Origin: Clostridia bacterium
GTDB lineage: Bacteria; Bacillota; Clostridia; Christensenellales; DTU072
Direction: 5' to 3'
DNA length: 64,000 bases
Assembly (NCBI GenBank): GCA_035409945.1
Contig: DAONQC010000006.1
Location: 12,570 to 76,569, forward strand
Notes under the pieces: generated by a model
The model's database searches: none
Told to the model about the DNA's origin: nothing
Seen by the model: the letters and a program-made list of their open reading frames with translations, nothing else
Translations under genes and position numbers: made by a program
Part shown: one piece after another, positions 2,516 to 63,903 of the stretch
Layout of the letters: each line of letters begins with the position of its first letter
Position numbering within the stretch: the first letter of the stretch is position 1

Positions 2516-2614
2516 TTATTTTTTCCTCCAAATTTCGTGCTCTAATATTATATATAATGTTTAATAAAATTACATCCTTTTTTAAGTATTTTGCGTCATA
2601 GCGCAGATTCGAGT

Positions 2615-2653
2615 GGATATCTACCGTTGCACTCACTATGATAACTAACACAT
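2615..2653 (+). repeat. Copy of a dispersed intergenic repeat (GGATATCTACCGTTGCACTCACTATGATAACTAACACAT)
   Basis: About 85% identical to 34687-34724 and about 75% to 25471-25508. All copies are intergenic. Confidence 0.7.
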
Positions 2654-2812
2654 AGCCACAGATTCACTAAACCACAAGAAGTTTGAGCATAAACTGTTAA
2701 GAAAGTGATTTTTAGTATAAGGTATGTACTTAGTGAGTGTTTTTCATTGGTTAGTTTATGTATTTAATGTATAGCAAGATACACTAAATATTAACGCACT
2801 TAAGCTAAACTA

Positions 2813-3532: not shown

Positions 3533-3622
3533 TACGACCTCCTTTTAAAACCTTTTTTGTAGCCATAGATACAAAATAGATATTGAAACCATACTGGTGA
3601 TTATAGTATATCACTTCACGAG

Positions 3623-3890
3623 CCCATTGACAATAACGAGACTTTAGGGGGTGTCTTATGTCGTTGTAATTAAGCCAGTTGTTGTATTCGTTTATATAGT
3701 TTTTAGAAAAATAAGGCACATTGATAATAATGAGACTTTAGGGGGCGTCTTATGCCGTGTTAATTAAGGAATTAGTAGTATTCATTTACATATATTACTC
3801 TAACTACTAAGGCTCGTTGGCAATGATGAGACTTTTTGGCATCCTATGGTGTGGCAATAGAGTTAGTTGTCATAATAAGCGCAACAGTAA
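3623..3890 (+). repeat. Three degenerate tandem repeats of about 91-97 nt
   Basis: Units start near 3623, 3714 and 3811. Shared core is TTGA(C/T)AATAA(C/T)GAGACTTTAGGGGG(T/C)GTCTTATG. Confidence 0.75.
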
Positions 3891-4002
3891 ACCTGGTACG
3901 AAAGCTTCCCAAAATAAGTGCAACTCGTTGATTTGTGACAAAAGATATTACTATTAGAATTCTCATATAAAAACTGTCGTGAGTGGCATCGAATTATAGA
4001 TA

Positions 4003-4059
4003 TTCACTTGTTAACAGTGAAAATAGTGAATATTCACTTTGTACAGTGAATTAAGTGAT
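4003..4059. promoter_or_regulatory. Array of AGTGAA/TTCACT hexamers forming three overlapping palindromes (candidate operator)
   Basis: TTCACT at 4003 and 4033; AGTGAA at 4016, 4025 and 4045; AGTGAT at 4054. Perfect 14-bp palindrome AGTGAATATTCACT at 4025-4038. Ends 16 nt upstream of the nfnA -35. Confidence 0.5.
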
Positions 4060-4074
4060 ATGCTCACACGAGCG

Positions 4075-4103
4075 TTGCGGAAATATGCGCGCGCGTGTAT
4101 AAT
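4075..4103 (+). promoter_or_regulatory. Sigma-A-type promoter of the nfnAB-like operon
   Basis: TTGCGG (4075-4080), 17-nt spacer, TATAAT (4098-4103). The spacer is an alternating GC tract, ATATGCGCGCGCGTG. Confidence 0.6.
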
Positions 4104-4137
4104 AACTGTATTGTTTTTAAGAGTTTGGAGGATTAAT

Positions 4138-4968
4138 TTGTACAATATATTAGCAAAAAGAGAACTGGCAAAAGACATTAACGAATATGTAATAGAGGCA
4201 CCAATGGTTGCAAAGAATGCAAAACCTGGTCAGTTTATAATCCTAATCGTTGAAGAAGGTGGAGAAAGAGTTCCCTTTACCATTTGTGACATGAATAAAG
4301 TTTTAGGCACTGTTACGATTTTAGTTCAAACGGTAGGCGCTACAACTGCTAAGCTTGCTAAACTTAAAGCTGGCGATACCATAGCTGAGTTTGTAGGTCC
4401 ACTTGGAAACCCCACTGATTTATCGGGATATAAAAAGGTTATGCTTGTTGGTGGTGGTATTGGCGGTGCCGTCATTTATCCCCAAGCAAAACTTCTTCAT
4501 CAATCCGGCATTGCTCCAGTAACCGTAATGGGAGCACGAAATAGAGATTTATTAATATATGAAAATGAAATGAGAACATATAGTTCAAGATTTTATCCCA
4601 TGACTGATGATGGTTCATATGGAGATAAGGGCTTTGTAACAAATAAGGTAAAAGAACTTTTAGATAATGAAGATTTTGATGTAATACTTGCAGTAGGTCC
4701 GCTACCCATGATGGAAGCTGTCACCAATGTAGCAAGAGATAACCCAGTAAAAGTCATAGTCAGTATGAATAGTGTAATGGTAGATGGAACTGGTATGTGT
4801 GGCTGTTGTAGAGTTACCGTGGGTGGAGAAACTAAATATGCCTGTGTCGATGGACCAGAGTTTGATGGTAAACTCATTGACTTTACAGAAGCTAGAACTA
4901 GAGCCAGCTTTTACAAAGAATTCGAAACTGAAGAAGATTGCAAAATTAGAGGACCAAGGAAAAAATAA
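4138..4968 (+). CDS. nfnA: NfnA-like FAD/NAD(P)-binding, [2Fe-2S] oxidoreductase subunit (PyrK/ferredoxin-NADP reductase-like)
   Basis: TTG start 7 nt after GGAGG gives (M)YNILAKRELAKDINEYVIEAPMVAKNAKPGQF, the typical N-terminus of this family. C-terminal CGCCRV...C cluster. The ORF-track start at 4039 lies upstream of the promoter. Confidence 0.8.
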   Translation: MYNILAKRELAKDINEYVIEAPMVAKNAKPGQFIILIVEEGGERVPFTICDMNKVLGTVTILVQTVGATTAKLAKLKAGDTIAEFVGPLGNPTDLSGYKKVMLVGGGIGGAVIYPQAKLLHQSGIAPVTVMGARNRDLLIYENEMRTYSSRFYPMTDDGSYGDKGFVTNKVKELLDNEDFDVILAVGPLPMMEAVTNVARDNPVKVIVSMNSVMVDGTGMCGCCRVTVGGETKYACVDGPEFDGKLIDFTEARTRASFYKEFETEEDCKIRGPRKK

Positions 4969-5180
4969 AGATTTTAGATATCCTGTAATAATCCTTGGTC
5001 GATAGACATACGCAAAGACTTCGAAACTTGGGAAGACTGCAAAATATTGGATCAAGAAAAAATAATGCTTTGTTAATAGACATGCGTTTCTAAAGAATAG
5101 GAAACCGAGGAAGACCATAAAATTAGAGGACCGAGAAAAAATAGAGATTAAGATATCCAGTAATAATACTTGGGTAGTGG
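4918..5180 (+). repeat. 3' echo of nfnA: real 3' end plus two degenerate tandem copies
   Basis: Units start at 4918, 5017 and 5095 (spacing 99 and 78 nt). EFETEEDCKIRGPRKK* is re-read as DFETWEDCKILDQEK... and *ETEEDHKIRGPRKN... Confidence 0.85.
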
Positions 5181-5198: not shown

Positions 5199-6569
5199 AT
5201 GGCAATACAGAAAAGAAATAAACCTTCAGAACTTAACCCTAATGTTAGGAATAAAAACTTTGAAGAAGTGACTAGAGTATTTACTGCCGAAATGGCTGTG
5301 AATGAAGCAACTAGATGCTTGCAATGTAAGGCAAAACCTTGCGTTAGTGGATGCCCAGTAGGTATAGATATCCCAGCCTTTATAGCAAAGATAAAAGCTA
5401 GTGATTTTGATGGTGCAGCAGATGTAATAAGTGAAGCAAATTTACTTCCTTCCATATGTGGAAGAGTATGCCCCCAAGAGACTCAATGTGAGGCGCGTTG
5501 TGTGCTAAATAAAATGGGAGAACCTGTCGCAATAGGAGCTCTTGAAAAATTCATAGGTGATTACAAACTGGCAAGAGGAATTAAAACTGAACCAGTCAAA
5601 AAGATTGGTAGAAGAGTTGCAATAGTTGGAAGTGGACCTGCTGGATTGACATGCGCTGCAGATCTTGCAAGAGAAGGTTTTGAGGTTACAATATTTGAAG
5701 CATTTCAAAGACCAGGCGGAGTATTAACTTACGGAATACCGGAGTTTAGGCTTCCAAAGCGTGTAGTTCAGAATGAGATAAAGACACTTAAAGAACTGGG
5801 AGTGGTCATAAAATGTAATGTTGTCGTGGGCAAAACTGTAATGTTAAATGAGCTCCTCGAAGAGTACAATGCAGTCTTCATAGGCACCGGTGCAGGACTG
5901 CCGACCTTCCAAGGGATACCTGGAGAAAACTTACCTGGGGTATATAGTGCAAATGAATACTTAACAAGAGTAAACCTTATGGAAGCTAGAAAAGAAGGTA
6001 GTGCGACTCCAGTATATAGAGGTAAAAAAGTTGTTGTAGTAGGCGCTGGTAATGTAGCTATGGATAGTGCAAGAACAGCTATAAGAATGGGTGCTGACGA
6101 AGTATCAATTGTATACAGAAGATCTAGAAAAGAAATGCCTGCAAGGCTAGAGGAAATCCACCATGCTGAAGAGGAAGGAATTAAGATGTTACTCCTTACC
6201 AATCCTGTTGAAGTTTTAGGTGAAAAGAAGGTTGAAGGTATACGGTGTATTAAGATGGAACTGGGCGAACCTGACGATAGAGGAAGGGCAAGACCTATTG
6301 AAATCAAAGGTAGCGAGTTTGATATAGAGTGTGACCAGTTAATTATGGCAATTGGGACTAGCCCAAACCCACTGCTTCATAAAGCAACTCCCGATCTTGA
6401 TGTTACAAATAGAGGGATAATAATAACCAATGAAGACGGATTAACATCCATTCCTAATGTATATGCAGGAGGAGACGCAGCAACGGGAGCTGCAACAGTA
6501 ATTTTAGCTATGAGCGCTGGAAGAAAGGCAGCAAAAGCTATAAAAGAATCACTGTTGAAGACAGAGTAG
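5199..6569 (+). CDS. nfnB: NfnB / glutamate-synthase small-subunit-like NADPH oxidoreductase (2x[4Fe-4S], FAD)
   Basis: CxxCxxxPC and CPxxxxC Fe-S motifs, VAIVGSGPAGL and VVVVGAGNVAMD dinucleotide folds. Adjacent to nfnA. Confidence 0.85.
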   Translation: MAIQKRNKPSELNPNVRNKNFEEVTRVFTAEMAVNEATRCLQCKAKPCVSGCPVGIDIPAFIAKIKASDFDGAADVISEANLLPSICGRVCPQETQCEARCVLNKMGEPVAIGALEKFIGDYKLARGIKTEPVKKIGRRVAIVGSGPAGLTCAADLAREGFEVTIFEAFQRPGGVLTYGIPEFRLPKRVVQNEIKTLKELGVVIKCNVVVGKTVMLNELLEEYNAVFIGTGAGLPTFQGIPGENLPGVYSANEYLTRVNLMEARKEGSATPVYRGKKVVVVGAGNVAMDSARTAIRMGADEVSIVYRRSRKEMPARLEEIHHAEEEGIKMLLLTNPVEVLGEKKVEGIRCIKMELGEPDDRGRARPIEIKGSEFDIECDQLIMAIGTSPNPLLHKATPDLDVTNRGIIITNEDGLTSIPNVYAGGDAATGAATVILAMSAGRKAAKAIKESLLKTE

Positions 6570-15306: not shown

Positions 15307-15389
15307 TGAGTAATAAAAGCGAAGTGTGATACAACAAAAAACGGATAGTTGTTGTGGAGCATATGTAATTGAGGATTTATGGTTTACTT

Positions 15390-15456
15390 TATAGTATACT
15401 TTTGCACATTTATAGGATACTTTATGGTATACTTTTGCCTATTTATAGTATACTTT
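15390..15456 (+). repeat. Four copies of TAT(A/G)G(T/G)ATACTTT
   Basis: Copies start at 15390, 15411, 15423 and 15444 (spacing 21/12/21), followed by TATAAT at 15462-15467. Confidence 0.7.
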
Positions 15457-15531
15457 TGAGATATAATGGGGTGCTGACAAAAATGGCTGCTGGCAAGTTT
15501 TAGAGTAATGACATCAAAGCTTAGAAAATCG

Positions 15532-15568
15532 CTAAACACTGGAATGAAAAGTCTCTAAACACTGGAAT
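15532..15568 (+). repeat. Direct repeat CTAAACACTGGAAT x2 (23-nt period)
   Basis: Exact copies at 15532-15545 and 15555-15568. Confidence 0.8.
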
Positions 15569-15685
15569 TACATTGTTATGGCACTGTGAAATGCGGATTT
15601 TTTGAAAGTAATACAAAGTGTAAAAACTTTTTGTGTCTACTTTACTTGACTGCTATACAACTGGTCATCAAACCGAACGGAAAGT

Positions 15686-15724
15686 GGAAATCTGACCGAA
15701 TGAAAAACGGAAATCTGACCGAAT
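15686..15724 (+). repeat. Direct repeat GGAAATCTGACCGAAT x2 (23-nt period)
   Basis: Exact copies at 15686-15701 and 15709-15724. Confidence 0.8.
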
Positions 15725-23505: not shown

Positions 23506-23614
23506 GCAAAAAGTTATAAAAGATTTCTGCATCGTAATATAGACTATGATTCTTTAAATATTACCACTATGTGTTTGTTGCAATGACCTACAATACGGCT
23601 TGTCAAGTTTCTTC

Positions 23615-23780
23615 CTAGTATACTACGAAAGAATTACAAGTTTATTACTAGTATACTATGAAAGAATTTTATATTTATTACTAGTACACTATGAAAGAAT
23701 TACAAGTATATTGCTAGTATAGTGTGAAAGAATTGTAAATTTATTTCTTGCGCACTACGAATAAAATGGATTACGATTAA
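23615..23780 (+). repeat. Five tandem 33-bp repeats (CTAGTATACTATGAAAGAATTACAAGTTTATTA consensus)
   Basis: Units start at 23615, 23648, 23681, 23714 and 23747 (exact 33-nt phase). Located between convergent genes. Weaker copies may extend back to about 23535. Confidence 0.85.
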
Positions 23781-30376: not shown

Positions 30377-31318
30377 TTAGTCATCCTCATCCATTATGAT
30401 GCTAATTATTTCTGTTTCTTCTAACCAATCATCATTTACCTTTCTATCTGCTTCAGTATCTAAACTGTCCTCATCGTCTAAGTCATCTATGTCGCTATTT
30501 GAATTATTTTCCTTATGTAATTTAGTGGTGCTAGCCAAGGATTTCTTTTCTTCCAAGTGGTCATAATTGGTCTTATTATCTATTTCAGCGCTTAAATTGA
30601 CATCATTTTTAAAATCATCTACATCACTATTTGAATTGTCTTCCTTTTGCAAATCGGTGGTGTTAGATAGGTTTTTTGCCTCTTCTTTGTCGATTTCATC
30701 CCAGCTGATAGTATCTTCATCTTTTCTTTTAATAGCGACTTTTGTTTTTACTCGGGATAGTATTCCCGTTTTAACAATTGCTAGATAGACTAGATACGCG
30801 ACTACTCCTCCAAGAGCACCAGACAACGAAGCTGCGAGTAGAGTGAAAAGCAAGGGGTATATGCTTAGTCTAAAAAACAAGAGGTTAGATCCGAAGGTTC
30901 CTGCCATATTGGCTAGTATTGTAGAAAGCATAAAGTGAAGTATATTATATCCATCTCGAGGCCTATATAAAAACACAAGTTCTACAAATATCGCTGGTGT
31001 CATGTATGTCAGTGCAGTCCACACTCCGTGACTTCCGGGTGCTCCAGTTGTAACCATAACTATCGTTTGAACTGCGGATATAAGCAGGGCAGAACCGCGT
31101 TTGCCAACAAGGACAATCGAAAGGGGAAGCCAAAGCATATATAGGCCACCAGCTAAAGCTCCTCCAGGGATGCCAAGAGGGCCTGTTATCATACGCACTA
31201 AATTACCAGCTACCACTTTAAAGCCTACGCTAGCAGCAGTAAGCATAGCTAGTAATACTAGGTCAAAAATACTAAATGCTTTCAACCCTTTTAGTTTGCG
31301 TTTTATAGGTTTATCCAT
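30377..31318 (-). CDS. ECF-transporter S-component-like membrane protein with long acidic repeat tail
   Basis: About 190 aa of Gly-rich TM helices (ITGPLGIPGGALAGGLYMLW...). The 110-aa acidic C-tail contains two repeats of about 44 aa (…NTTDLQKEDNSNSDVDDF… / …STTKLHKENNSNSDIDDL…). Confidence 0.6.
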   Translation of the reverse strand: MDKPIKRKLKGLKAFSIFDLVLLAMLTAASVGFKVVAGNLVRMITGPLGIPGGALAGGLYMLWLPLSIVLVGKRGSALLISAVQTIVMVTTGAPGSHGVWTALTYMTPAIFVELVFLYRPRDGYNILHFMLSTILANMAGTFGSNLLFFRLSIYPLLFTLLAASLSGALGGVVAYLVYLAIVKTGILSRVKTKVAIKRKDEDTISWDEIDKEEAKNLSNTTDLQKEDNSNSDVDDFKNDVNLSAEIDNKTNYDHLEEKKSLASTTKLHKENNSNSDIDDLDDEDSLDTEADRKVNDDWLEETEIISIIMDEDD

Positions 31319-31494: not shown

Positions 31495-32856
31495 TTAAGC
31501 CACCGCTTCGTTTAAAACGATTTTTGCTACCTTTTTATTGACGGACTTACTAGCGGTGCTAGTGCTATCAGATAGGTATCTTGGAGAACTGCTATCTGCT
31601 TCGAACTTTCCATCATCTGTTATTTTACCGATTGTGATGTATGCGTTATCCATATTATCAGTTTCGGTTGTATAGTTGCCTGTGGAATCATAGGATGTAA
31701 CTTTAGTTATTTCTGGTATTGTGACTTTCAGTTTTGGAGTAATATTAGATAGCTTATATGCAAGATATATTACTGAAGTTTCATTTCCCATAGAATTAAC
31801 GGTGGTCATTGTAACATTTTCTCTTGCTACTTTTTTCAAGACATCATTAGTTATTGTTTTGAGAAGAGTAGCATTATCATATAGTTCAACATTTACCTCA
31901 ACAGTGGTTAAGGGATCGTTGAATATGACTTTCGCTATTTTTTTGTTAATAGATTTACTAGAATTGCTGGTGCTGTCAGATATATATCTAGGGCCATCGG
32001 CATCTTCAACAAACTTACCGTTTTCTACAAAGCCTATTGAGATGTATGCATTAGTGATGTTTTCTGCTTCAACTAAATAATCATCGGTAGCGCGAGAAAA
32101 TACGCTAGTAATTTCTGGGAGTGTGAAATTTTTTAGTTTTGGAGTAATGTTAGATAGCTTATATGCAAGATATGTTATGGAAGTTTCTGTTCCCATAGAA
32201 TTAACAGTGGTCATTGTAACATTTTCTCTTGCTGTTTTTTTCAATTCTTTATTAGTAATGGTGCCTAAAAGGGTAAGGCTATCATACAATTCAACGTTAA
32301 CATTAACAGTGGCTAATGGGTCATTAAATATGACTTTTGCAAGTTTTTTATTAATTGATTTGCTTTCGGTACTTTGGCTGTCAGATACATATCTAGGAGA
32401 ATCTGCATCAGCTACAAACGCGCCGTCTTCTTCTAAACCTATAGTGATATATGCATTGGCAATATTTTTAGCCTCGACAATATAGTTATCTGAAGCAACA
32501 GCATAGACACTATTAATTTCTGGTAGTGTAAGGTCAAGGGCGGTAACTATGTCTGTAAGCTTATATGCAATGTATACCACCGAGGTTGTAGTGCCATAAT
32601 CGTTTACGGTATTCATACTAAGTTTATGTTGCTCAACATTTGCAAACGAAGCATTTACGGCAGTCCCTAGCAGTTCAATACCATTATATATCTCAACATT
32701 GATATTTAAATCAGCAGGAATTTGATAAGCATTCGGGGTATTATTAACATCGTCTGCTGGATCGGTTTCGACCTTATTGCATGCAAATAAAGTCATGCTT
32801 AGCACTAATACTGAAATAACAAGAAATAGTGCGAGTAATTTTTTGTTCATTTTCAT
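31495..32856 (-). CDS. Lipoprotein made of three tandem copies of the shared module
   Basis: Lipobox LFAC. Three 135-aa repeats each end ...GPRY(I/V)SDS...SKSINKK(I/L)AKVIFNDPL. Confidence 0.6.
   Translation of the reverse strand: MKMNKKLLALFLVISVLVLSMTLFACNKVETDPADDVNNTPNAYQIPADLNINVEIYNGIELLGTAVNASFANVEQHKLSMNTVNDYGTTTSVVYIAYKLTDIVTALDLTLPEINSVYAVASDNYIVEAKNIANAYITIGLEEDGAFVADADSPRYVSDSQSTESKSINKKLAKVIFNDPLATVNVNVELYDSLTLLGTITNKELKKTARENVTMTTVNSMGTETSITYLAYKLSNITPKLKNFTLPEITSVFSRATDDYLVEAENITNAYISIGFVENGKFVEDADGPRYISDSTSNSSKSINKKIAKVIFNDPLTTVEVNVELYDNATLLKTITNDVLKKVARENVTMTTVNSMGNETSVIYLAYKLSNITPKLKVTIPEITKVTSYDSTGNYTTETDNMDNAYITIGKITDDGKFEADSSSPRYLSDSTSTASKSVNKKVAKIVLNEAVA
31500..32715 (-). 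repeat. Intragenic 405-nt tandem repeat x3
   Basis: AATATGACT anchors at 31922 and 32327. Antisense shadow ORFs at 31721-32080 and 32123-32485 translate almost identically. Confidence 0.85.
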
Positions 32857-32900: not shown

Positions 32901-33053
32901 GGCTATTTCCTTAAGTTTTAGTGTTGTATCACTACATCCGATTAACAATGCTTGCTAGTTCTTTATTGGCTATTTCCTTGGGTTAGTGTTATATCACTAC
33001 ATCCGATTAACAATGCTTGCTGGTTTTTATCGGCTATTTCCTTAAGCTTATTG
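32901..33053 (-). repeat. 3' echoes (2 copies, about 65-nt period) of the 438-aa lipoprotein gene
   Basis: GGCTATTTCCTTAAG... units start at 32901, 32968 and 33032; the third contains the real stop. The two echoes are about 90% identical to each other. Confidence 0.8.
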
Positions 33054-34337
33054 TTATATCTCTACATTTATGGCTTTAAATACGATTGATTTACCTTCGT
33101 AATTAAGAGTGTATTTACCATCTTCATTTTTTGTGACTTTAGCGCCTAGAATTTGCTCATATGACACATCTACTTTTGTATTATCAATTTTCGTTACCGA
33201 ATACTCTGTATAAGGTTTAAACATGTTAAGTAAAATTAGCAAATCTTTTACATTAAACGAGCCATCAGTTTTTCCATCTACATCTGGGTCATAACGTTTC
33301 ATTGCAACATCAAAAGAGACAATTGCAGAGTGAAATACAGATATAGAAAGAACATTTTTGACTGACATACCGTCAGGGAAAGCGGGACCGTCTAAAATAG
33401 GTGTTCTAGTTAGTGTCCAGCTAGCGTCAGCATCACAAATGCCAGATGTTAATATGTATGCATTGCTATATATGTCGTAGGTTGCCCATTTTTGATATTC
33501 TCTGTATGTGTCAGAGCCTGAAATATAGTCCCAAGCTACTACACTCATTTTATCTATTTCTTGTACACCTTTTAATATGTTGGTTGGACCTATCATTTTT
33601 GAAATGTCTAACCCATAGTACGTGTAGTTACCGTCACTTTCTTCTTTTGTATATTGTCCGCCATATGTAGTAGAGTTTATTTCATCAAGAGAATAGAGGG
33701 AGTATACGGTAGGAGTCTTTAGTAACTCAGTAGAAAAATCGATTTTGTATAAATATTTAACCCAGGTGTTTGCAACTTGGTCATGGAATATAGCTCTTAA
33801 AGCACCACTGCCTGATTTTATTGTTAAAACTTCGCCGTCTAATTCAAGAGCAATTACCATCTTGCTCCCACGACCATCGCTATCGAATACTTCATCAGTG
33901 GCAACTGCTACGTAGCCATCTGTTCCATAAAGGGATAAACTTCCATATACATTAATTGGAGCACTTTCTGTATAGTCAGAAAGTAAGTCTTCTAAATATA
34001 CGCCTTTAACAGTATGTGGAATTAAATTACCATCATCGTCTTGTTTATCACTTGCAACAGCGGGGTTATCTTCATCAAATATAACGGGTTTAGTTTCATA
34101 AAGTGTTTTAATTGTAGATTTCTTTATTACAACATCTTCGAGTAAATTCCCATCTACTTTCTGTAATCCAGATAGCGTAAGGGTGTAGTCATCGTCCGTA
34201 ACGGGGGCAGTGTTATTAGTATTATTGGTATTATCAGGTTCAGTATCGGGCTTATCGTTACAACCGACAAAAAATGTCATAGAAATAATGAGTGCAAATA
34301 CAATACTAAAAAGAATAACAGTCTTAAGTTTTTTCAT
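33054..34337 (-). CDS. Lipoprotein with two copies of the shared module and a dockerin/EF-hand-like segment
   Basis: Lipobox FFVGC. VKGVYLEDLL...YGTDGYVAV...IALELDGEVL...GALRAIF...NTWVKYLYKIDF, and DVDGKTDGSFNVKDLLILL. The MKKLKT start (34337) follows GGGGAG. Confidence 0.6.
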   Translation of the reverse strand: MKKLKTVILFSIVFALIISMTFFVGCNDKPDTEPDNTNNTNNTAPVTDDDYTLTLSGLQKVDGNLLEDVVIKKSTIKTLYETKPVIFDEDNPAVASDKQDDDGNLIPHTVKGVYLEDLLSDYTESAPINVYGSLSLYGTDGYVAVATDEVFDSDGRGSKMVIALELDGEVLTIKSGSGALRAIFHDQVANTWVKYLYKIDFSTELLKTPTVYSLYSLDEINSTTYGGQYTKEESDGNYTYYGLDISKMIGPTNILKGVQEIDKMSVVAWDYISGSDTYREYQKWATYDIYSNAYILTSGICDADASWTLTRTPILDGPAFPDGMSVKNVLSISVFHSAIVSFDVAMKRYDPDVDGKTDGSFNVKDLLILLNMFKPYTEYSVTKIDNTKVDVSYEQILGAKVTKNEDGKYTLNYEGKSIVFKAINVEI

Positions 34338-34500
34338 AATAAAGAGCTCCCCATAAAATAAAAAGTTCACGTTCCCACGTGAAAAGAGCTCTTTAGAAGA
34401 GAGAGTGTTCTTTTCGCAATGGAAGGGTAATCCCTTTCGAAGTTACCCCCGGTCTAAACCCATAGCATTGCCTTAGGTGTTTAGACTCGAACATGTCTAT
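34338..34500 (-). promoter_or_regulatory. Structured 5' leader (riboswitch-like, class not recognised) of the ECF-lipoprotein operon
   Basis: 8-bp helix GTCTAAAC/GTTTAGAC (34452-34459 / 34479-34486), hairpin GGGTAA...TTACCC, possible pseudoknot GCAATG/CATTGC, terminator-like TTCACGT-GGGA-ACGTGAA plus T-run (34350-34383), and AAAGAGCTC able to pair with the GAGCTCTTT overlapping the RBS. Confidence 0.5.
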
Positions 34501-34571: not shown

Positions 34572-34810
34572 CTTACTGCGACAACTAGCATTACCATGTT
34601 TTGCAGTCGGTTATCACACCCTGCTCGATGTCTTAGCTCCCTCTCAACTAACTATGACAACTAATATGAACCTGTCTTGCCTGATGGGCTATCTACCGCT
34701 GGCTTACTATGACAACTAACATATCGTGTCTTGCTCAATGACCTATATGCCACATAACTTACTATAACAAGTGCTATCATGTCCATGATAAATTTCTTCC
34801 AATCGCAGAT
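34572..34810 (+). repeat. Four degenerate tandem copies of the dispersed intergenic repeat
   Basis: CTTACT(G/A)(C/T)GACAACTA... units start at 34572, 34648, 34703 and 34758 (periods 76/55/55). Confidence 0.75.
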
Positions 34811-39146: not shown

Positions 39147-39225
39147 TATATAGATGCAGTAGGTTTTACGAAGGCTGTGGTTGTGGTAATAAGATATTGT
39201 AGTGCAATATTTTAGGATAGTGGAA

Positions 39226-40050
39226 ATGAAAAAGATAAGTGGTGGTGATAGAGTGGACTGGAAGATAATTGTGGTAAGAGTCATTCTCAAAGTAATTTTG
39301 GCTATTTTACTATTAGGCTTTGGCTCTAATATTTTAATCCGCACAATTTCATATTCATTTTACAAAGGTAATAAAAATAAATCTGAAGTAACTATATCTC
39401 CTCACAAACTCACATATGCAGAGAATTTAACTGGTTATGGATATAATCTTGAAAATGAGTCCGACTCGGTTATTTTATGCTTTGGTGGCTCATTTTATGT
39501 TGCATACAACACAGTTGGAATGTTTGCACCATACTATGACACTCCATTTCTTTCAGTAGATTATTATGGAACCCAAGAAAGTAAAGGAAAAATGAATTTA
39601 AAAACCATGAAAGCTTCAGCAGAAGGTTTATACGACTATGTAGTACAAAAATATTCTGGTAGAAAAATTATCATAATAGGTCATAGTTATGGATGCGGAA
39701 TGGCGGCTTACTTAGCTTCTGTAAGGGAATGTAGTCACCTATACTTAGCCTCTGGATATAGAGATCTTGCAGACATTTATAACAAGATAATGCCAATCTT
39801 TTGGGGACCACTTAAAATCTTTATTTCTGACAATATGGATATCAAGAGCTACGCGGAAAAAACCACTTGTCCAGTTACAGTAATTGGTTCTGAAAAGGAT
39901 AAAACGTTAAGCAGTAAGCTACAAGGGAAGGTAGCCGAATGCTATAAAAATGCAACACTTAAAATATTTGATGATATTGAACACGAACATTACCTAAAAG
40001 ATGAAAGAGTTGTATCACTAATAAAGGCATCACTAACAGATAATAATTAG
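39226..40050 (+). CDS. Alpha/beta-fold hydrolase (membrane-anchored)
   Basis: GHSYGCG nucleophile elbow and an N-terminal TM. MKKISGG start preferred. Confidence 0.7.
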   Translation: MKKISGGDRVDWKIIVVRVILKVILAILLLGFGSNILIRTISYSFYKGNKNKSEVTISPHKLTYAENLTGYGYNLENESDSVILCFGGSFYVAYNTVGMFAPYYDTPFLSVDYYGTQESKGKMNLKTMKASAEGLYDYVVQKYSGRKIIIIGHSYGCGMAAYLASVRECSHLYLASGYRDLADIYNKIMPIFWGPLKIFISDNMDIKSYAEKTTCPVTVIGSEKDKTLSSKLQGKVAECYKNATLKIFDDIEHEHYLKDERVVSLIKASLTDNN

Positions 40051-45105: not shown

Positions 45106-47058
45106 ATGAATCAAGAAAAGACAGATAAAGTAAATTTAAAAATTAATAAAGAATTAGGGATGAAGATTTTGTTTGGGATAGCAGCGTGTGTTGCTATATT
45201 AGCCACAATAACTATCTTCATCTTTTTATTTATAAAAGGCGTCCCCGCGATTAGAAGAATTGGCTTGGGAAACTTTTTATTTGGTCAAACCTGGCGACCA
45301 GATACGCATGATACATATGAAGGTGAGATATCTGGGATTTATGGGATATTCCCTATGATTATAGGGACTTTGTATGCTACGGTAGGAGCTGTAATAATTG
45401 GTGGAATATTAGGATTTTTTACTGCTGTATTTCTATCAAGGTTCTGCCCGCCAAAAATAAAGCCAATTTTAACCCAGCTTGTGAATTTGCTTGCAGGGAT
45501 TCCTTCAGTTGTGTATGGATTTTTTGGCATGCAACTATTACTTCCTCTACTTGGAGAAGTTTCGCCAAACGGCTCAGGTTCTGGGATTTTAGCGGTATCT
45601 ATCATATTAGGTGTTATGATTTTACCTACCATTGTTGCACTCTCAAAAACTTCTATCGATGCAGTCCCTGAAGCATATTATACTGGTGCTCGTGCAATAG
45701 GTGATAGCCATGCAGGAGCGGTGTTTGGAGCAGTGGTTCCAGCAGCAAAGTCTGGTATAGCGGCAAGCTTTATTTTAGGGATAGGCAGGGCTGTCGGAGA
45801 GACTATGGCGGTTATCATGCTTGCTGGAAATAACCCAGTTATCCCTACAACGCTATTTTCATCCTTTAGAACAATGACAGCTAATGTTGTTCTGGAAATG
45901 GGCTATGCAGGTGAATTACAACTTGGTGCATTAATAGCAACTGGGTGTATATTATTTTTCTTTGTGTTAGTAATTAACACACTCTTCGGATTAATACGCG
46001 GAAGCTCTGAAAAAGTCGAAGGGAAAAACAAGCTAGGTTTGTTTATCAAAAAGATACAGAGAAAAAGGTCAACTAACAACCTCTCTGATTTAGCAAGTAA
46101 CATATCTGAAAATCGAGTCGATAACATTAAAAAAGAATCTAAATTCAAGCAAGTTATGAAGGGCGTAAAAAGAGATATACAGCGATTTAGAGAGGGGTTT
46201 CAATCTTTATTAAACCGTAGGAACAAGGTGATTATTCAGATAAAGACGATACTTTGTTATGTTTGTACTATAGTGGCTGTAACTGCACTTATTACTATTG
46301 TGGTATTTATATTTGTGAAAGGAGTGCCGAATATTACTTGGGACTTGATAAGCCGCAATTTTAGTTATGGTGAAGATCCAACCATAATGCCATCTATAGT
46401 TGTTACCATAATGCTGATAGCTTTAAGTATGGTAATAGCTTTACCTTTAGGTATTTGCACAGCGGTCTTTTTATCAGAATATACTAAAAAAGGCAATAAA
46501 TTTATTAAGATAATACGTGGTGCACTAGAAATATTATCGGGCATCCCTTCCATCGTTTATGGACTGTTCGGTATGGTCTTTTTCTGTGTAATGCTGAAGC
46601 TTGGAACTAGTGTTCTTGCCGGTTCGTTGACGGTAGCGATTATGATAATACCAGTTATATGTCGCTCAACTGAAGAGAGCTTAAAGATGGTACCACAAAG
46701 TTATCGAGAAGGTAGTTTTGCGCTTGGCGCCGGTAAGGCTAGAACTATTTTTAAAGTTGTTATACCTTCTGCTATGCCAGGCATTTTAGCTGCTACCATA
46801 TTAGCGGTTGGGAGGGTTATAAGCGAGTCTGCGCCGCTAATGTTCACTATGGGCGCATCGCTTAAAGGAGTTCCTCGAACCGGTTACTTAGGTAGTGGGA
46901 CATCTTTAGCTGTTGCATTATATATATTAGCAGGGGAAGGATTGTACATAAAAGAAGCTTATGCGACTGCCTGTGTGCTCATATTAATAATACTTACACT
47001 CAACATATTATCAACACTGCTCGTCAGCAGACTGCAAAAGAAGTTCGTTGGAAAATAA
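45106..47058 (+). CDS. Fused PstC-PstA phosphate ABC permease
   Basis: Two MetI-type permease halves (EAA-like AYYTGARAIG... and SYREGSFALGAGK...) joined by a basic linker of about 70 aa. Confidence 0.85.
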   Translation: MNQEKTDKVNLKINKELGMKILFGIAACVAILATITIFIFLFIKGVPAIRRIGLGNFLFGQTWRPDTHDTYEGEISGIYGIFPMIIGTLYATVGAVIIGGILGFFTAVFLSRFCPPKIKPILTQLVNLLAGIPSVVYGFFGMQLLLPLLGEVSPNGSGSGILAVSIILGVMILPTIVALSKTSIDAVPEAYYTGARAIGDSHAGAVFGAVVPAAKSGIAASFILGIGRAVGETMAVIMLAGNNPVIPTTLFSSFRTMTANVVLEMGYAGELQLGALIATGCILFFFVLVINTLFGLIRGSSEKVEGKNKLGLFIKKIQRKRSTNNLSDLASNISENRVDNIKKESKFKQVMKGVKRDIQRFREGFQSLLNRRNKVIIQIKTILCYVCTIVAVTALITIVVFIFVKGVPNITWDLISRNFSYGEDPTIMPSIVVTIMLIALSMVIALPLGICTAVFLSEYTKKGNKFIKIIRGALEILSGIPSIVYGLFGMVFFCVMLKLGTSVLAGSLTVAIMIIPVICRSTEESLKMVPQSYREGSFALGAGKARTIFKVVIPSAMPGILAATILAVGRVISESAPLMFTMGASLKGVPRTGYLGSGTSLAVALYILAGEGLYIKEAYATACVLILIILTLNILSTLLVSRLQKKFVGK

Positions 47059-55195: not shown

Positions 55196-55894
55196 TTATT
55201 TTTCTGACTTTTCTTTCTCTGCCGTATAGTCTGGTTTATTTGCTGCTTCTTCAGTCATTGAATATTTAGAGCAGTTGAGACCTAGTTTTTCTTCTATGCA
55301 GTTAATTCTATCTCTAATTTTTGCAAACTCCTCTAATACCGGGTCGGGGACAAATTGATCCATGTCTTGGTATTTATTGCCGTTCATCCTCACAACTCTA
55401 CCTGGAACTCCAACAACTGTACAATTAGGTGGAACGTCTTTTAGCACCACGCTTCCTGCACCAACTTTTGACCCTGCTCCGATTGTGACTGGACCGAGTA
55501 TTTTAGCACCTGATGAAATCATTACATTATCGCCAATAGTGGGGTGACGTTTGCCAGTGCCTTTACCAGTACCTCCAAGAGTTACTCCTTGGTAGATAGT
55601 AACATTTTTACCAATTTCTGCAGTTTCTCCGATAACTACACCGTGTCCATGGTCTATGAATAAACCTTCGCCTATTTTTGCAGCTGGGTGAATTTCTATA
55701 CCAGTGCGCCTTGCAGCTCTTTGGCTAATTAGCCTTGCTAGTAAATAAAATTTTTTAGCGTGTAATTTGTGAGCTGTTCTATATGCGCGCAGTGCTTTTA
55801 CGCCGTTATATGTTAATCTTACCTCCAGCCTAGAACGTGCGGCAGGGTCTCTTTCCATTACTGCATCTATATCTTTTTTCAGTAAACTAGCCAT
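55196..55894 (-). CDS. cysE: Serine O-acetyltransferase
   Basis: N-terminal SATase helix region, hexapeptide repeats, and [16 protein letters not shown]. Confidence 0.9.
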
Positions 55895-56185: not shown

Positions 56186-57631
56186 CTATGGCATTCGTCG
56201 TGGTAACTGCCGGTTAGGTGTTTGTGGTGAGTAGGCTGGTTTTGTTCCAGCAAGTGCATATGCTCCTTTCTTAGGAACTCTACTCATACCAGGTTGCCCA
56301 GCTTTGGTTGCTTTTGTATCGCCAGCATATACGTGTGGCTTATTGCCTTTTGGTACATATGCCACAGTCTTTGCAGGTCTGTTCTTAAAGAAGAAGGGTA
56401 GAATAGTTAGCAGGAATGGAATTATTAGTAACAAGGCAAATAATAGATTGAAAGTAATTGTTGATTCGCCGTATATGAAGTCAGTCCAATACATTGTAAA
56501 GTAGTTTGAAAAAGCTTGTTTTATATCTGCCGAAGAAACTGATTTTATTTCCAAAAATGCTGGGAATATCATAGTTAATACGCCACAAATAAGGATTAAA
56601 ATGGGCCATAAATGCAGTCTTCTAGATGTATAACTAAAGAGCCTACCTACGTTTATAAATAGTTCAACAACGCAGGCTATAATCATAATAACTAGAGAGT
56701 AAATAGTACCATAAGTTGCTATTCTCTTTACGATAGCTACATTATTATATTTTCCATCTTCGCCTTTTACTATTTCAATTTCATCTGCACGATCTCTTAT
56801 GTACCTCATGTAGTACCAGCTAGGTCCTTGCATTGCATCTAAGTTTTCAATTATATCTACTCTATTTTTGCTGAACAATTCAGTTCTAAATAGGGCTTTA
56901 ATTACATCAACTACAGTTATATCAATTGATTGCATATGTAATTGGTCATATAATAAAACTTTATCTGGGGCAAATGAATCTTCGTCTTTATATACATCAC
57001 CATAAGTGAATTTTTGCTCGTCGTGAATAAAAGTTCCTTTTGGCCATTCGCCATTATTAGGGACTAAAAGGTCATTGGCGCCCGATTCTAGTTTAAAATA
57101 TCCAATTGAGGTTAATGATAACTTGGAGTTAGCGGACAGTGTGGTTTCTATTGGTTCTAATTGAGTTGGTGTTAAGTATACAGAAGAGAATATTAGCGCG
57201 GCAAAAACAAGTATTAAAATAATCATAATGATGGGTAGGGCAGCACCAAAGTATCTGGATTTAGAAAAATATGTTTCAAAGTCAAAATCAACATCTGAAT
57301 AAGCATCAGCATATTTTGAAAGTTGCTTATCTCTTTTTGCCTTTATCTCGGCTTGATACATATGGTAGCTTTTGAGTTCAGCTGCTAATATGTCTGGATC
57401 ATAATCCCCACGTTGCACTTTGTCCAAAAGTGTTTGATATTCAGCACGTGTATGACGAAGCTTAGCCTTTGCATAAGGACTATCGAGCTTTCGTATCTCA
57501 TACCTCATTTCTTTGATTTTACGTTTTAAAAGTTCAACAAGTATTGCCTCGTCTCTTTCTGTCCAAGTAGCATTGAACATTTTAGCCTCGGTCAAAGGTT
57601 GTTGCTTTTTGCTGTATATTGATCTTGCCAT
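56186..57631 (-). CDS. Hypothetical polytopic membrane protein with Pro-rich C-terminus
   Basis: Long ORF with several TM helices. GGAG RBS 6 nt before the ATG at 57631. No recognisable motif. Confidence 0.5.
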   Translation of the reverse strand: MARSIYSKKQQPLTEAKMFNATWTERDEAILVELLKRKIKEMRYEIRKLDSPYAKAKLRHTRAEYQTLLDKVQRGDYDPDILAAELKSYHMYQAEIKAKRDKQLSKYADAYSDVDFDFETYFSKSRYFGAALPIIMIILILVFAALIFSSVYLTPTQLEPIETTLSANSKLSLTSIGYFKLESGANDLLVPNNGEWPKGTFIHDEQKFTYGDVYKDEDSFAPDKVLLYDQLHMQSIDITVVDVIKALFRTELFSKNRVDIIENLDAMQGPSWYYMRYIRDRADEIEIVKGEDGKYNNVAIVKRIATYGTIYSLVIMIIACVVELFINVGRLFSYTSRRLHLWPILILICGVLTMIFPAFLEIKSVSSADIKQAFSNYFTMYWTDFIYGESTITFNLLFALLLIIPFLLTILPFFFKNRPAKTVAYVPKGNKPHVYAGDTKATKAGQPGMSRVPKKGAYALAGTKPAYSPQTPNRQLPRRMP

Positions 57632-57852
57632 CATCAACTCCACTAAAAACGCGCGCATGTTGTTTAACGCGATATATTATGTATTATATAATACACGAAA
57701 ACAAAATACAAGTAATAAAGGGAAAACCAAAAAAGCTAGACTTTCAAAATATTTACTAGTCGGTTAAACGGCAGTTTTGTAAATGCAACTGCAACTTATA
57801 GTTAAGTCTTGGAGCTTAATTTAGCGCAAGAAACATATTTGCTTTTTCGACG

Positions 57853-58008
57853 CTACACATTGAACCTGAACAGGATGACGTCGCCTTCACGAACGACATA
57901 GTCTTTTTCCACTTAATGCGTATTGCTTACAGTTCGATGTTTGAAATATACTCAATATTCCAAAGCTATACATTGAACCTAAACATTGAACCTAAACATT
58001 GAACCTGA
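57853..58008 (-). repeat. 3' echoes of ychF at two scales (58-nt copy 139 nt downstream; 13-nt unit x3 across the stop codon)
   Basis: 57853-57910 is about 93% identical to 57992-58047. ACATTGAACCTAA repeats at 57970, 57983 and 57996. Confidence 0.9.
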
Positions 58009-59077
58009 ATAGGATGACATCGCCTTCACGAACGACATAGTCTTTTCCTTCGGAACGAACTTTTCCTTTTTCTTTAGCGACATTGTACGAGCCACATTCA
58101 AGCAAGGTGTCATAGTCTATGACCTCTGCACGAATAAAACCACGCTCAAAATCGGTATGGATGGTGCCAGCAGCTTGAGGAGCCTTAGTTCCAATAGGTA
58201 TGGTCCAAGCTCTAGATTCGGTGGGGCCGGCAGTTAAGAAACTCATAAGTCCTAGTAGTTTGTATGATTTTTTGATAAGCTTTTCTAGACCAGTGGTTTC
58301 AATACCTAATTCTTTAAGAAATTCAGCCCTCTCTTCGGGAGGTAAATCAGCAAGTTCTGCTTCTAGTTTTGCTTTTAAAACCACGACCTCGCTACCTTCG
58401 TTCTCAGCATATTCTTTAACTTTTTGAACATAGTCATTGTCTTCAGAATCATCTTCTGCTATGTTTGCGCAGTATATAACTTTCTTGGTTGTTAAGAGAA
58501 ATAGTGAATTTACAAAAGGTTGTTCTTCTTCTTTGATTGGGGCAAGTCTAGCACATTTCCCGTCGGACAAAGTATTGTATATTTTTTCAAGTATGGCATA
58601 CTCATCTTTATACTTTTGTTCACCGCTTTTCATCATTGTGCGAGTTTTGTCCATTCTTCTATTAAGGATTTCAAGGTCGGAAAGTATGAGTTCTAAATTG
58701 ATGTCTTCGATATCTCTAATGGGGTCTGTTGAGCCTGCGACATGGGTAATGTTGGGGTCGTCAAAACATCTTACAACATGAACTATTGCATCTACTTCTC
58801 TTATGTGAGATAAAAATTTATTACCTAGACCTTCGCCTTTACTAGCTCCTTTGACAAGGCCAGCAATATCTGAAAATTCTATATATGTATGAGTTACTTT
58901 CTTGCTGTTATAAAGTGCTGCTAATTTATATAATCTTTCATCTGGAACTTCTACCACTCCGATATTTGGGTTGATGGTACAAAAGGGGTAGTTTGCTACC
59001 GCTGCTCCAGCTGAAGTGAGTGCATTAAATATGGTGCTTTTTCCTACATTAGGAAGTCCAACAATACCTAATTTCAT
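57992..59077 (-). CDS. ychF: Ribosome-binding ATPase YchF
   Basis: GIVGLPNVGKST P-loop, TGS-like C-terminal domain ending EGDVILFRFNV. Confidence 0.95.
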   Translation of the reverse strand: MKLGIVGLPNVGKSTIFNALTSAGAAVANYPFCTINPNIGVVEVPDERLYKLAALYNSKKVTHTYIEFSDIAGLVKGASKGEGLGNKFLSHIREVDAIVHVVRCFDDPNITHVAGSTDPIRDIEDINLELILSDLEILNRRMDKTRTMMKSGEQKYKDEYAILEKIYNTLSDGKCARLAPIKEEEQPFVNSLFLLTTKKVIYCANIAEDDSEDNDYVQKVKEYAENEGSEVVVLKAKLEAELADLPPEERAEFLKELGIETTGLEKLIKKSYKLLGLMSFLTAGPTESRAWTIPIGTKAPQAAGTIHTDFERGFIRAEVIDYDTLLECGSYNVAKEKGKVRSEGKDYVVREGDVILFRFNV

Positions 59078-59106
59078 TTATTTTTTCACCTCGTATAATA
59101 TATTAA

Positions 59107-59241
59107 ATTCTTCGTTTAGGAAGGTTATGCTTTATTAAATTTATCCATATTAGCAACAAAGTTTTTACGAGCCTCTCTAGTATTATCTACTTTCTTCCAA
59201 GGGATTGACAGCTCTTCTACAATCTCTGCCGTATACCTTTG
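59107..59241 (-). repeat. 3' echo of the sigH-like gene (135 nt, 148-nt period, reading frame preserved)
   Basis: The echo translates QRYTAEIVEELSIPWKKVDNTREARKNFVANMDKFNKA*, versus the real QGYTYAEIAEELSIPQKKVDNTIMASKKKIAANMDKLNKA*. Confidence 0.9.
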
Positions 59242-59272
59242 ATACTATATCAAGCTCTTCGTTGTAGGAAGG

Positions 59273-59842
59273 CTATGCTTTATTAAGCTTATCCATATTT
59301 GCTGCAATTTTTTTCTTACTAGCCATTATGGTGTTATCTACTTTCTTTTGAGGAATCGACAGTTCTTCTGCAATCTCTGCATATGTATATCCTTGTACGT
59401 ATAGAGACCAAACTTCAAGTTGAAGGGGGGATAGAATATCTTTTAATATGTGGGAAACTGCGCTAGCCCGTTGCTTAGTTAATAGGTTTTGATATGGGTC
59501 TATTGTGTCGTCTGCAGTATCGTCTTTTACCTCAAAACGAGCGCTAGGGACAATTCGGTTTTTCTTGCGAAGTATGGTAAATAGTCTATTTTTCATACAG
59601 CGCTCGGAATAGTAATACAAACTATTATATTTATCATAGTCGAAAGTTTCTACTGCTTTGACAAAAGCAACCATCGCTTCCTGGACTAAATCATCTTTAT
59701 CTATGACAGGGGATATAAAAGGTTTACTAACATCAATACAAACTTTATGAATAGCTGCTTCATATTTTTTTATGAGCTGATTTAAAGCTTCTTTATCGCC
59801 TTTTTGTGCACGGCTTATTAATGTTTTTTCATCTACTTTCAT
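59273..59842 (-). CDS. sigH: Sigma-70-family sigma factor, SigH-like by synteny
   Basis: Region 2 (DDLVQEAMVAFVKAV) and region 4 HTH (YTYAEIAEELSIPQKKVDNTI). Located downstream of rlmB as in Bacillus. Confidence 0.7.
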   Translation of the reverse strand: MKVDEKTLISRAQKGDKEALNQLIKKYEAAIHKVCIDVSKPFISPVIDKDDLVQEAMVAFVKAVETFDYDKYNSLYYYSERCMKNRLFTILRKKNRIVPSARFEVKDDTADDTIDPYQNLLTKQRASAVSHILKDILSPLQLEVWSLYVQGYTYAEIAEELSIPQKKVDNTIMASKKKIAANMDKLNKA

Positions 59843-60665: not shown

Positions 60666-60722
60666 AATTCCCTCGTATACAACACTGTTATGAATTTAAC
60701 CAATATATGGTTAACAATATTG
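60666..60722 (-). promoter_or_regulatory. Conserved hairpin 5' leader, copy D (upstream of rlmB)
   Basis: Sense strand reads CAATATTGTTAACCATATATTGGTTAAATTCATAACAGTGTTGTATACGAGGGAATTATG. Inner stem 60696-60702 / 60708-60714. The outer stem is kept through G-U pairs. Confidence 0.7.
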
Positions 60723-60760
60723 TTTATATTTTATTTAAATCGTAGCTTAACGCTAATGCT

Positions 60761-63338: not shown

Positions 63339-63558
63339 GTTATTGAAGTGGCTCGTAAAGAGGCCTAAAGGCATGCCATAATGCTTGCTAACTATTACGA
63401 GAGCATTGGTGTAGGATAGCATATGCTGTGTGGCTAAGCTACTTTATCTTGGATTGAATTGGCTCTCAAAGAATCTAAAGGCAGGTAGCAATGCTTGCTA
63501 ATCATTACGAGAGTATTGGTGTAGGATTCGAATGTTGTGTGGCTAAGCTACTTTATCT
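63339..63558 (-). repeat. 3' echoes (2 copies, about 110-nt period) of the 63559-63903 gene
   Basis: (G)TTATTGAAGTGGCTCGT(C)AAAGA(A/G)G(T/C)CTAAAGGCATG at 63340 and 63559. A more diverged copy, GGATTGAATTGGCTCTCAAAGAATCTAAAGGCAGG, lies at 63451. Confidence 0.8.
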
Positions 63559-63903
63559 TTATTGAAGTGGCTCGTCAAAGAAGTCTAAAGGCATGTCTTT
63601 TATCGAGGTTGCTACCACTAGATTCAAAATGATGGAGATTACACAATATAAGCATATTGCTAAAATAGGTATGTCTATTTTTCTTAAGAATGTCCTGAAT
63701 TTGCCAACTGGTTTTACTTTAGTTTGAGTTTCATTAACTTGCGTTTCGGCATCCATAACCTCCGCTTGCGCTTCGGTAGTGGCAACCAAATCCTTATCTT
63801 CTACTTGACTAGTCGATTCGGTTTGTGAAGCGTCCTGAGCGATTGGGCCATATTGATTTTCAGCATATATATCTTCTAGTTGATATTTGGCAGTAGTGCA
63901 CAA
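63559..63903 (-). CDS. Hypothetical acidic protein with C-terminal TM anchor (the 5' end may extend beyond the listed Met)
   Basis: ORF with the TM segment IPILAICLYCVISIILNLVVA. No motif recognised. Confidence 0.4.
   Translation of the reverse strand: MCTTAKYQLEDIYAENQYGPIAQDASQTESTSQVEDKDLVATTEAQAEVMDAETQVNETQTKVKPVGKFRTFLRKIDIPILAICLYCVISIILNLVVATSIKDMPLDFFDEPLQ

Follow-up and report, generated by a model that had tools for sequence, protein, structure and literature searches.

Orphan 3' ends that were displaced by new C-terminal modules are found in cdiA-CT and rhs-CT arrays, and homology-facilitated illegitimate recombination is known from Acinetobacter and Streptococcus pneumoniae. The scars that such recombination leaves after natural transformation are mentioned in PMC6382021. 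Here we examine a 64-kb stretch of DNA (hereafter the window) from an uncultured Clostridia lineage, in which the end of a sigH-like sigma-factor gene is repeated, in diverged form, between that gene and its downstream neighbor ychF. We call such a copy of a gene's 3' end an echo. The explanation that we favor, at a probability of roughly 60%, is that the echo arose in situ by a microhomology-mediated tandem duplication that left both genes intact, and that the redundant halves of the duplication then decayed.

Two abutting units between the sigH-like gene and ychF

The sigH-like gene, its echo, and ychF all lie on the minus strand, and an earlier sequence-only reading had drawn attention to positions 59107-59395. 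From 59089 to 59389 the window carries one unit twice, head-to-tail, composed of the last ~38 codons of the sigH-like gene, the stop codon, and 36-37 nt of the sigH-ychF spacer. Unit A (59236..59389, minus strand) holds the real sigH tail, from codons Y-T-Y-A-E-I to the stop (59389..59273), followed by the first 37 nt of the spacer in redundant form (59272..59236). Unit B (59089..59235, minus strand) holds the echo with its own TAA (59235..59125) and the 36 nt with which the working ychF leader begins (59124..59089), and it is 7 nt shorter than unit A owing to gaps of 3, 3, and 1 nt. Because no DNA lies between the two units, the arrangement is a tandem duplication. A repeat search recovered it as three ungapped, in-register blocks of 68 nt (79% identity), 50 nt (84%), and 29 nt (76%) at spacings of 151, 148, and 147 nt, in agreement with the earlier description of an echo at about 75-80% identity and a spacing of about 148 nt. 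Local alignment of the sigH tail with its own downstream DNA scores 72-122, against a maximum of 28 among ~600 control pairs drawn from the same window. The repeat is genuine, far beyond chance expectation, and its units have no further copies within the window.

A codon-aware alignment places 23 differences between tail and echo in 111 aligned nucleotides (79% identity), distributed 5/5/13 over the three codon positions and made up of 16 transitions and 7 transversions. In ten codons, TAG versus TAA included, the difference is purely synonymous, and in nine it is nonsynonymous; the abundance of synonymous differences noticed in a previous hand count (9 versus 10) is thus borne out, with the two figures exchanged. 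The core alignment contains two gaps of one codon each. The claim that the indels are confined to whole codons is true of this core alone, since a free DNA alignment adds 1-nt gaps near the junction. Beyond the stop codon the repeat continues for 36-37 nt, with 29 of 36 positions identical (81%) and one 1-nt indel, so that coding part and spacer part were copied alike, across the gene boundary.

The ends of the repeat offer a candidate for the junction. The heptamer TACAAGG (59391..59397, minus strand) lies inside sigH, in codons V-Q-G just upstream of unit A, and TACGAGG (59089..59095, minus strand) lies at the ychF ribosome-binding site (RBS), at the end of unit B. They match at 6 of 7 positions, and the junction copy at 59244..59236 (minus strand) reads TATCAAAGG; the exact junction has been blurred by later divergence. 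We infer that replication slippage or template switching between these heptamers probably duplicated in place a segment of ~151 nt, from about sigH codon 151 through the stop to the ychF RBS. The upstream unit would have supplied the working sigH tail and stop, and the downstream unit the working ychF leader and RBS. Because both genes were left intact, such a duplication would have been harmless and could have become fixed. The redundant halves, which are the copied spacer of unit A and the copied sigH tail of unit B, would have been left jobless and decaying, and at the present 21% divergence a collapse of the array by recombination between the copies would no longer be likely. All 47 nt of the ychF leader still precede the gene, with the first 36 nt present a second time upstream of the echo, and the RBS GAGGTG (59092..59087) and the ATG follow unit B. 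The leader is therefore intact, and the notion that the echo had replaced its 5' half does not hold.

Since the sequence comes from metagenome-derived contigs, one might suspect that two strain variants were stitched together in tandem during assembly. The same structure is found in Logan, in ENA (k141), and in two JGI assemblies from different samples, however, with not a single difference in the sigH-ychF spacer, and the spacer is identical, without polymorphism, across six loci from four samples. A strain bubble, whether collapsed or expanded, would also call for an identity far above 79%, and we give an assembly artifact next to no credence.

The parent gene (59273..59842, minus strand; 189 aa, stop TAG at 59275..59273) encodes a protein of the sigma-70 family in which regions 2 and 4 are both present (Pfam Sigma70_r2, PF04542, and Sigma70_r4_2, PF08281; TIGR02937 79.8 bits, cut-off 42.9). 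Its best NCBIfam matches are SigH models, yet TIGR02859 gives only 78.7 bits against a cut-off of 294.8 and the PRK08295 models give 63-84 bits against cut-offs of 208-414; because the SigH equivalog cut-offs are missed by far, "sigH-like" is the right wording. The exact protein (P0001) occurs on more than 20 contigs, and its cluster is a single sequence. The repeat has as neighbors mrnC, rlmB, sigH, ychF, and a gene for a DUF2779 protein. The sigH-like gene comes after the genes for mini-RNase III (mrnC) and an rlmB-type methylase, a synteny of mrnC, rlmB, and sigma factor that matches the Bacillus sigH neighborhood, and ychF (57992..59077, minus strand; 361 aa) is downstream of the echo. Right after ychF the gene order breaks between the window and its closest relative: the window has a co-directional 490-aa open reading frame (ORF) without a Pfam match (56186-57991), and the related locus L001 has a convergent 410-aa ORF (2039-3319).

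Age and coding potential of the echo

Only one other close lineage is available for comparison, and we refer to it as the sister (sigH 71-75% identical; synonymous divergence, dS, 0.99 for sigH and 1.5 for ychF; nonsynonymous divergence, dN, 0.035 for ychF). All four of its loci (L001, L035, L036, and L037) have sigH, a spacer of ~60 nt, and ychF, with no echo, which argues that the duplication arose in the window's lineage after the two had split. Moreover, the two spacer copies within the window are still 81% alike whereas the spacers of window and sister can barely be aligned, so the duplication would have occurred long after the split. When the changes are polarized with the sister as outgroup, the echo receives 16 of them (4/3/9 over the three codon positions) and the real tail 3, with 4 left ambiguous, an asymmetry that is expected if the echo is an unconstrained copy. 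The echo itself is best regarded as a relic that does no harm, and it accounts for the difference between the 195-nt sigH-ychF spacer of the window and the ~60-nt spacer of the sister.

The open frame of the echo (59125..59244, minus strand) comprises 39 sense codons from 59244 to 59128, one more than the 38 reported earlier, and ends, as had been noted, in its own TAA (59127..59125) where the real tail has TAG; if translated, it would yield the peptide AEIVEELSIPWKKVDNTREARKNFVANMDKFNKA. Translation of this frame is ruled out. No ATG, GTG, or TTG is found near its start, it lies in the +1 frame relative to sigH, and an in-frame TAG (59245..59247, minus strand) between the sigH stop and the echo blocks read-through or frameshifting into it; read-through of the sigH TAG runs in another frame than the echo, to a TAA. 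Nor does the echo correspond to a listed ORF, the only one of at least 30 aa between sigH and ychF being a single antisense fragment. A structured RNA or terminator in the spacer was also considered and rejected: Rfam returned no match to the spacer at E ≤ 1, RNA folding gave no excess structure (z 0.09), and there is no terminator-like site between the two genes. Duplication of an attachment site by an integrative element was rejected as well, given that the copies abut and that, apart from the antisense fragment, nothing in the way of element DNA or an integrase separates them.

The spacer might nevertheless matter as DNA. The only promoter-like (sigma-70-like) site between sigH and ychF sits in the echo (CTGTCA-18-GATAAT, 59211..59182, minus strand). 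At the same position the real tail reads CTGTCG...GATAAC, so that two of the "synonymous" differences bring the echo closer to consensus, perhaps by chance, and no terminator separates the genes. One could therefore imagine that the duplicated segment was co-opted for ychF expression, for example by exposing a promoter once buried in the sigH tail, with selection acting on DNA signals rather than on the peptide. This proposal strikes us as quite improbable, because a promoter scan found fewer sites than shuffled sequence would give (2 versus 5.1 expected), the -35 match is weak, both changes are ordinary GC-to-AT transitions, and the sister lineage manages with a spacer of 60 nt.

The echo peptide was also judged as a sigma-factor domain, against a family profile built from 37 distant family members that included neither the window nor the sister. 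The real tail scores 49.8 bits and the sister tail 51.2; the real tail carrying only the two codon deletions of the echo falls to 30.7, and the echo itself to 18.5. The two deletions alone thus cost 19 of 50 bits. Neutral simulations with the same deletions average 13-16 bits and reach the score of the echo in 17-31% of runs, or in about half of them when no more than 10 amino-acid changes are allowed. The echo has Arg where all 37 family members have L, I, or M (Ile to Arg), and it has a loss within the K-K-K of the recognition helix. When the echo is grafted onto the protein as its tail, the NCBIfam sigma scores of the chimera are 15-25 bits lower and the alignments end before the helix. The amino-acid changes show no more conservatism than random replacements would, and they strike the helix that is most conserved and spare the variable C-terminus. 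The in-frame gaps of the echo are therefore damaging, not tolerated, and its replacements look random. On these profile scores, the echo peptide appears indistinguishable from the product of random decay and is probably no longer a working-looking sigma-factor domain.

Gene-tail echoes in the window and its clade

Copies of this kind recur in the window. The last 90 nt of 52 non-overlapping ORFs were scanned against their own 350 nt of downstream DNA, with the downstream DNA of other genes as the control (again with a maximum of 28), and nine of the genes (~17%, about one in six) had a tail echo above the control range, versus 2 of 246 in 60 unrelated loci (<1%; P = 3e-6). Besides the sigH-like gene and ychF, the nine are genes for a PyrK/NfnA-like reductase subunit (4039..4968), a GltD-like protein (5199..6569, plus strand), an ABC_cobalt-family protein (30377..31318, minus strand), a hydrolase (39202..40050, plus strand), a permease (45106..47058, plus strand), and a hexapeptide transferase (55196..55894, minus strand), and an ORF without a Pfam family (63559..63903). 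The GltD-like, ABC_cobalt-family, hydrolase, permease, and hexapeptide transferase genes have their last 21-82 nt copied 6-105 nt after the stop codon, and all nine genes have a co-directional gene downstream. Echoes of 5' heads were found for 2 of 50 genes in the window, one of them in a tRNA region, and for 1 of 216 heads in the unrelated loci; within the window, the excess of 3' over 5' echoes (9 versus 2) has a P of 0.05. A literature search for a described "gene-tail echo" phenomenon found nothing specific.

Several of these echoes are clean arrays of two or three units of tail plus spacer. Ahead of the GltD-like gene, the PyrK/NfnA-like tail and its spacer (4907-5175) form three tandem units at spacings of 99 and 78 nt; the third has an in-frame TAG, and its last 15 codons otherwise differ from the real tail mostly synonymously. 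At 63340-63593, a 110-nt unit consisting of the last 37 nt of ORF 63559..63903 and 75 nt of spacer is present 2.3 times at 82-92% identity, the last partial unit carrying a 1-nt deletion. The echo of ychF (57853-57907) is 95% identical to the last 55 nt of the gene (57992-58046). Each copy closes with TAG, none of the three differences alters an amino acid, and similarity is lost after the stop codon, with unrelated flanks beyond the copies. The ychF tail is separated from its echo by two additional 13-nt copies of the stop region, of which one is perfect, together with 56 nt of filler that is unmatched elsewhere in the window; the resulting array (57966-58006) is GTTCAATGT(T/A)TAG repeated 3.2 times, with a 13-nt unit and 96% identity. 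These 13-nt copies show that slippage is still active. Pooled over the echoes other than that of sigH, differences fall 20/18/30 on the three codon positions, and the third-position share of 30/68 (44%) is close to the ~40% expected when a decaying copy is compared with a constrained partner (P = 0.22-0.34).

The propensity extends to the sister. One of the two matches among the control tails belongs to it: in an mrnC-rlmB spacer of 215 nt it has two fragments that echo the mrnC tail (L037 ~330-560, JGI24710J26742_10007412), and the corresponding spacer in the window (60666-60760) is 95 nt long and holds no echo. Since the mrnC echoes are present in the sister only, the propensity appears to be clade-wide and its instances lineage-specific, having arisen independently in both lineages.

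Many further spacer arrays, which may represent iterons, operators, or plain slippage, are seen in the tandem repeat listing of the window (Tandem Repeats Finder, TRF), at 23600-23761, 15376-15724, 32901-33067, 3622-3792, 34646-34770, and 4000-4058; they include a 33-nt unit present 4.3 times, units of 12, 23, and 33 nt, a 55-nt unit present 2.3 times, and a 94-nt spaced pair in a divergent promoter region. A 65-nt unit present 2.6 times overlaps the stop of ORF 33054..34370, and a 29-nt unit present twice lies across the start of ORF 4039. In addition, ORF 31495..32856 (minus strand) contains an internal tandem repeat of 405 nt, or 135 codons, at 31726-32457 (1.8 copies, 78-79% identity), which is an in-frame domain duplication.

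The density of echoes, together with the array-filled spacers, suggests either that short duplications form at an unusually high rate or that deletion is unusually weak. For an uncultured Clostridia lineage, this density is more interesting than the single case of sigH, and it could be tied to the clade's complement of repair or competence genes. A bolder view is that the clade has a 3'-biased process that repeatedly copies gene tails just downstream, rather than ordinary slippage filtered by selection, and that some echoes, such as those of sigH and ychF, are remnants of foreign or former alleles. Candidates for it would be one-sided recombination with diverged alleles, occurring often, or a mechanism linked to transcription or reverse transcription that duplicates the 3' regions of mRNAs. 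We consider its existence doubtful.

Divergence pattern, origin, and known systems

Whether the echo has ever been under selection of its own turns on the choice of null. Simulations with 23 substitutions leave no internal stop with a probability of 0.33-0.74 and preserve a stop at the terminal codon with a probability of 0.54-0.75. The open frame and kept stop of the echo are thus unremarkable, within neutral expectation and evidence of nothing, and the absence of stops cannot serve as the signal it had been taken for. The synonymous differences are less easily dismissed. If only the dead copy is allowed to mutate, ten or more synonymous codons arise with P = 0-0.004 and this null is rejected, so that the previous argument against unconstrained decay holds against a frozen original. 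Half of the comparison is under selection, however, and pairwise dN/dS values or synonymous-to-nonsynonymous counts therefore need a two-lineage null; a pseudogene fragment set beside its working parent can mimic purifying selection. Once the working tail is also allowed to evolve for the same time, at a ratio of nonsynonymous to synonymous rates (omega) of 0.2, the same count has P = 0.003-0.04 (1.5-3% at the transition bias of 16:7 estimated from the data), and 13 or more of the 23 differences at third positions have P = 0.04-0.06. Against this null the argument becomes borderline.

Codon-based estimates likewise depend on the model. The Nei-Gojobori method applied to tail and echo finds differences at proportions of 0.51 of synonymous sites (pS) and 0.127 of nonsynonymous sites (pN), hence an omega of 0.16, like that of the whole sigH gene between window and sister. 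A three-taxon codon model with free branches gives an omega of 0.21 on the echo branch and rejects omega = 1 (likelihood-ratio test statistic, LRT, 8.0), a fit that requires an echo branch of ten times the length of the tail branch; when both branches are given equal time, omega becomes 0.45 and the LRT 2.5. The chi-square P values of these tests are approximate, as the alignment has 36 codons, and tests against omega = 1 on the echo range from P = 0.003 to 0.11 depending on the null. The synonymous signal at sigH is real at the nominal level, yet model-dependent and borderline. With about ten echoes to choose from, a P of a few percent for that of sigH is unremarkable. Its synonymous-rich look may come from two ordinary sources and chance: the functional tail would contribute almost only synonymous changes, 16 of the 23 differences are transitions, and the sample is only 37 codons. 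Selection acting at present on the echo as coding DNA is rejected.

Several observations nevertheless weigh against duplication in situ followed by neutral decay. An identical tandem repeat of 150 nt is unstable at birth, and its long survival needs luck or weak deletion pressure. The synonymous excess stays nominally significant even under the realistic null, and the best-fitting codon model rejects equal times (LRT 5.5) in favor of a long echo branch with low omega and a very short tail branch. Third-position changes on the echo branch number 9-12 in 37 sites, versus 7-8 at first and second positions together in 74 sites; pS between the copies exceeds the divergence of the spacer (0.19); and both core gaps are whole codons. 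Finally, the differences are clustered in codons 19-30, the recognition helix (13 in 33 nt), relative to the flanks (11 in 78 nt).

This clustering, with the preserved frame and stop, might also be expected of a silent cassette, a gene-conversion reservoir from which the DNA-recognition helix of the sigma factor is swapped. The single-sequence P0001 cluster speaks against it, as does a search of more than 20 contigs from different samples that found no hybrid or converted sigH; gene and spacer are identical in all contigs compared. There is only a single cassette, the echo peptide makes a poor region 4.2, and the same kind of echo is found on housekeeping genes such as ychF and on the genes for the NfnA-like reductase, permease, and hydrolase. 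A cassette function is accordingly very hard to credit.

Several of the awkward observations would be met by an import scar from a diverged relative, produced by homology-facilitated illegitimate recombination or a similar allelic replacement. Homologous recombination on one side and an illegitimate join at TAC(A/G)AGG on the other would have left two versions of the sigH tail with its spacer, one from the donor and one from the recipient, lying in tandem. The 21% divergence would then for the most part be older than the event, having built up in two working alleles, and the redundant copy would have decayed somewhat since. The pairwise omega typical of sigH orthologs, the LRT of 8.0, and the codon-level P of 0.003-0.04 fit this history; whole-codon gaps and a kept stop follow from it naturally, and a copy that is diverged from birth is stable at once. 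The echo of ychF, with its all-synonymous differences, homology ending at the stop, filler, and unlike flanks, also fits an import better than a plain tandem duplication. Other features of the divergence speak against an import. Synonymous changes number 6-9 on the echo and 0-1 on the tail, where symmetry is expected; divergence is lower in the spacer copies (19%) than at synonymous sites (51%), a relation that no allelic model would predict; and replacements concentrated in the most conserved helix, beside an unchanged variable C-terminus, are the opposite of what orthologous alleles show. For other genes with three-unit arrays, this model would have to invoke import at one site more than once.

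No donor came to light either. The comparison with related sigH alleles proposed in the sequence-only reading yielded neither an echo-like allele nor a third lineage in a collection of 5.8 billion proteins, the GTDB species genomes, or the JGI metagenomes. Relatives at least 70% identical in these collections were the window's own protein and the one sister lineage, neither of which has the states of the echo, namely V, W, R-E-A-R-K-N-F-V, and the two codon deletions; a 48-aa chimeric echo query returned no candidates, not even the parent protein, and is hence uninformative. We also considered whether the sigH and ychF echoes could stem from one event, in which a 1.33-kb donor fragment with ychF left the donor sigH tail on the left and the recipient ychF tail on the right. 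Two illegitimate junctions would be needed, and the divergences of the two echoes are very unlike (21% versus 5%). The earlier suggestion of a once-functional diverged allele or of selection therefore survives only in part: current coding selection is rejected and no such allele was found in these collections, and an allelic origin of the echo is possible but not required. We regard an import as unlikely, if worth keeping in mind, and prefer duplication in situ followed by decay of the redundant halves, with the slippage mechanism, the neutrality of the decay, and the order of events all offered as the probable course.

Set beside the known systems, the orphan ends of cdiA-CT and rhs-CT arrays are alike in that an old or alternative tail lies directly downstream of a working gene without a start codon of its own. 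They are horizontally acquired toxin-immunity modules of hundreds of codons, whereas the echoes in the window are housekeeping tails of 7-40 codons without cargo. The template-repeat and variable-repeat (TR/VR) pairs of diversity-generating retroelements resemble the sigH locus in having a diverged copy of ~110 nt of a gene's 3' end close downstream. Here the target is a sigma factor and not a ligand-binding fold, and the repeat includes the stop and spacer; a retroelement origin was rejected because the mismatches are not adenine-specific, with A at 5 of 23 positions in the echo and 10 of 23 in the tail. Scars of homology-facilitated illegitimate recombination share one junction at a short microhomology, two diverged versions side by side, and coding-like divergence. 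The sigH junction differs from them in having no foreign filler, no known donor lineage, and asymmetric branch lengths, and the ychF echo comes closer to this class.

The nearest counterpart is the partial tandem duplication that arises by slipped-strand mispairing or microhomology-mediated template switching and leaves behind a gene-fragment pseudogene. The echo resembles it in being a redundant fragment without a start codon, in carrying damaging replacements, in being absent from the sister, in its head-to-tail arrangement without an insert, in its unit of both coding and noncoding sequence, and in the near-identical heptamers at the unit's ends. Compared with the usual bacterial tandem repeat, the sigH echo is unusually old at 21% divergence, it is one of nine among 52 genes, and its share of synonymous differences is somewhat higher than expected.

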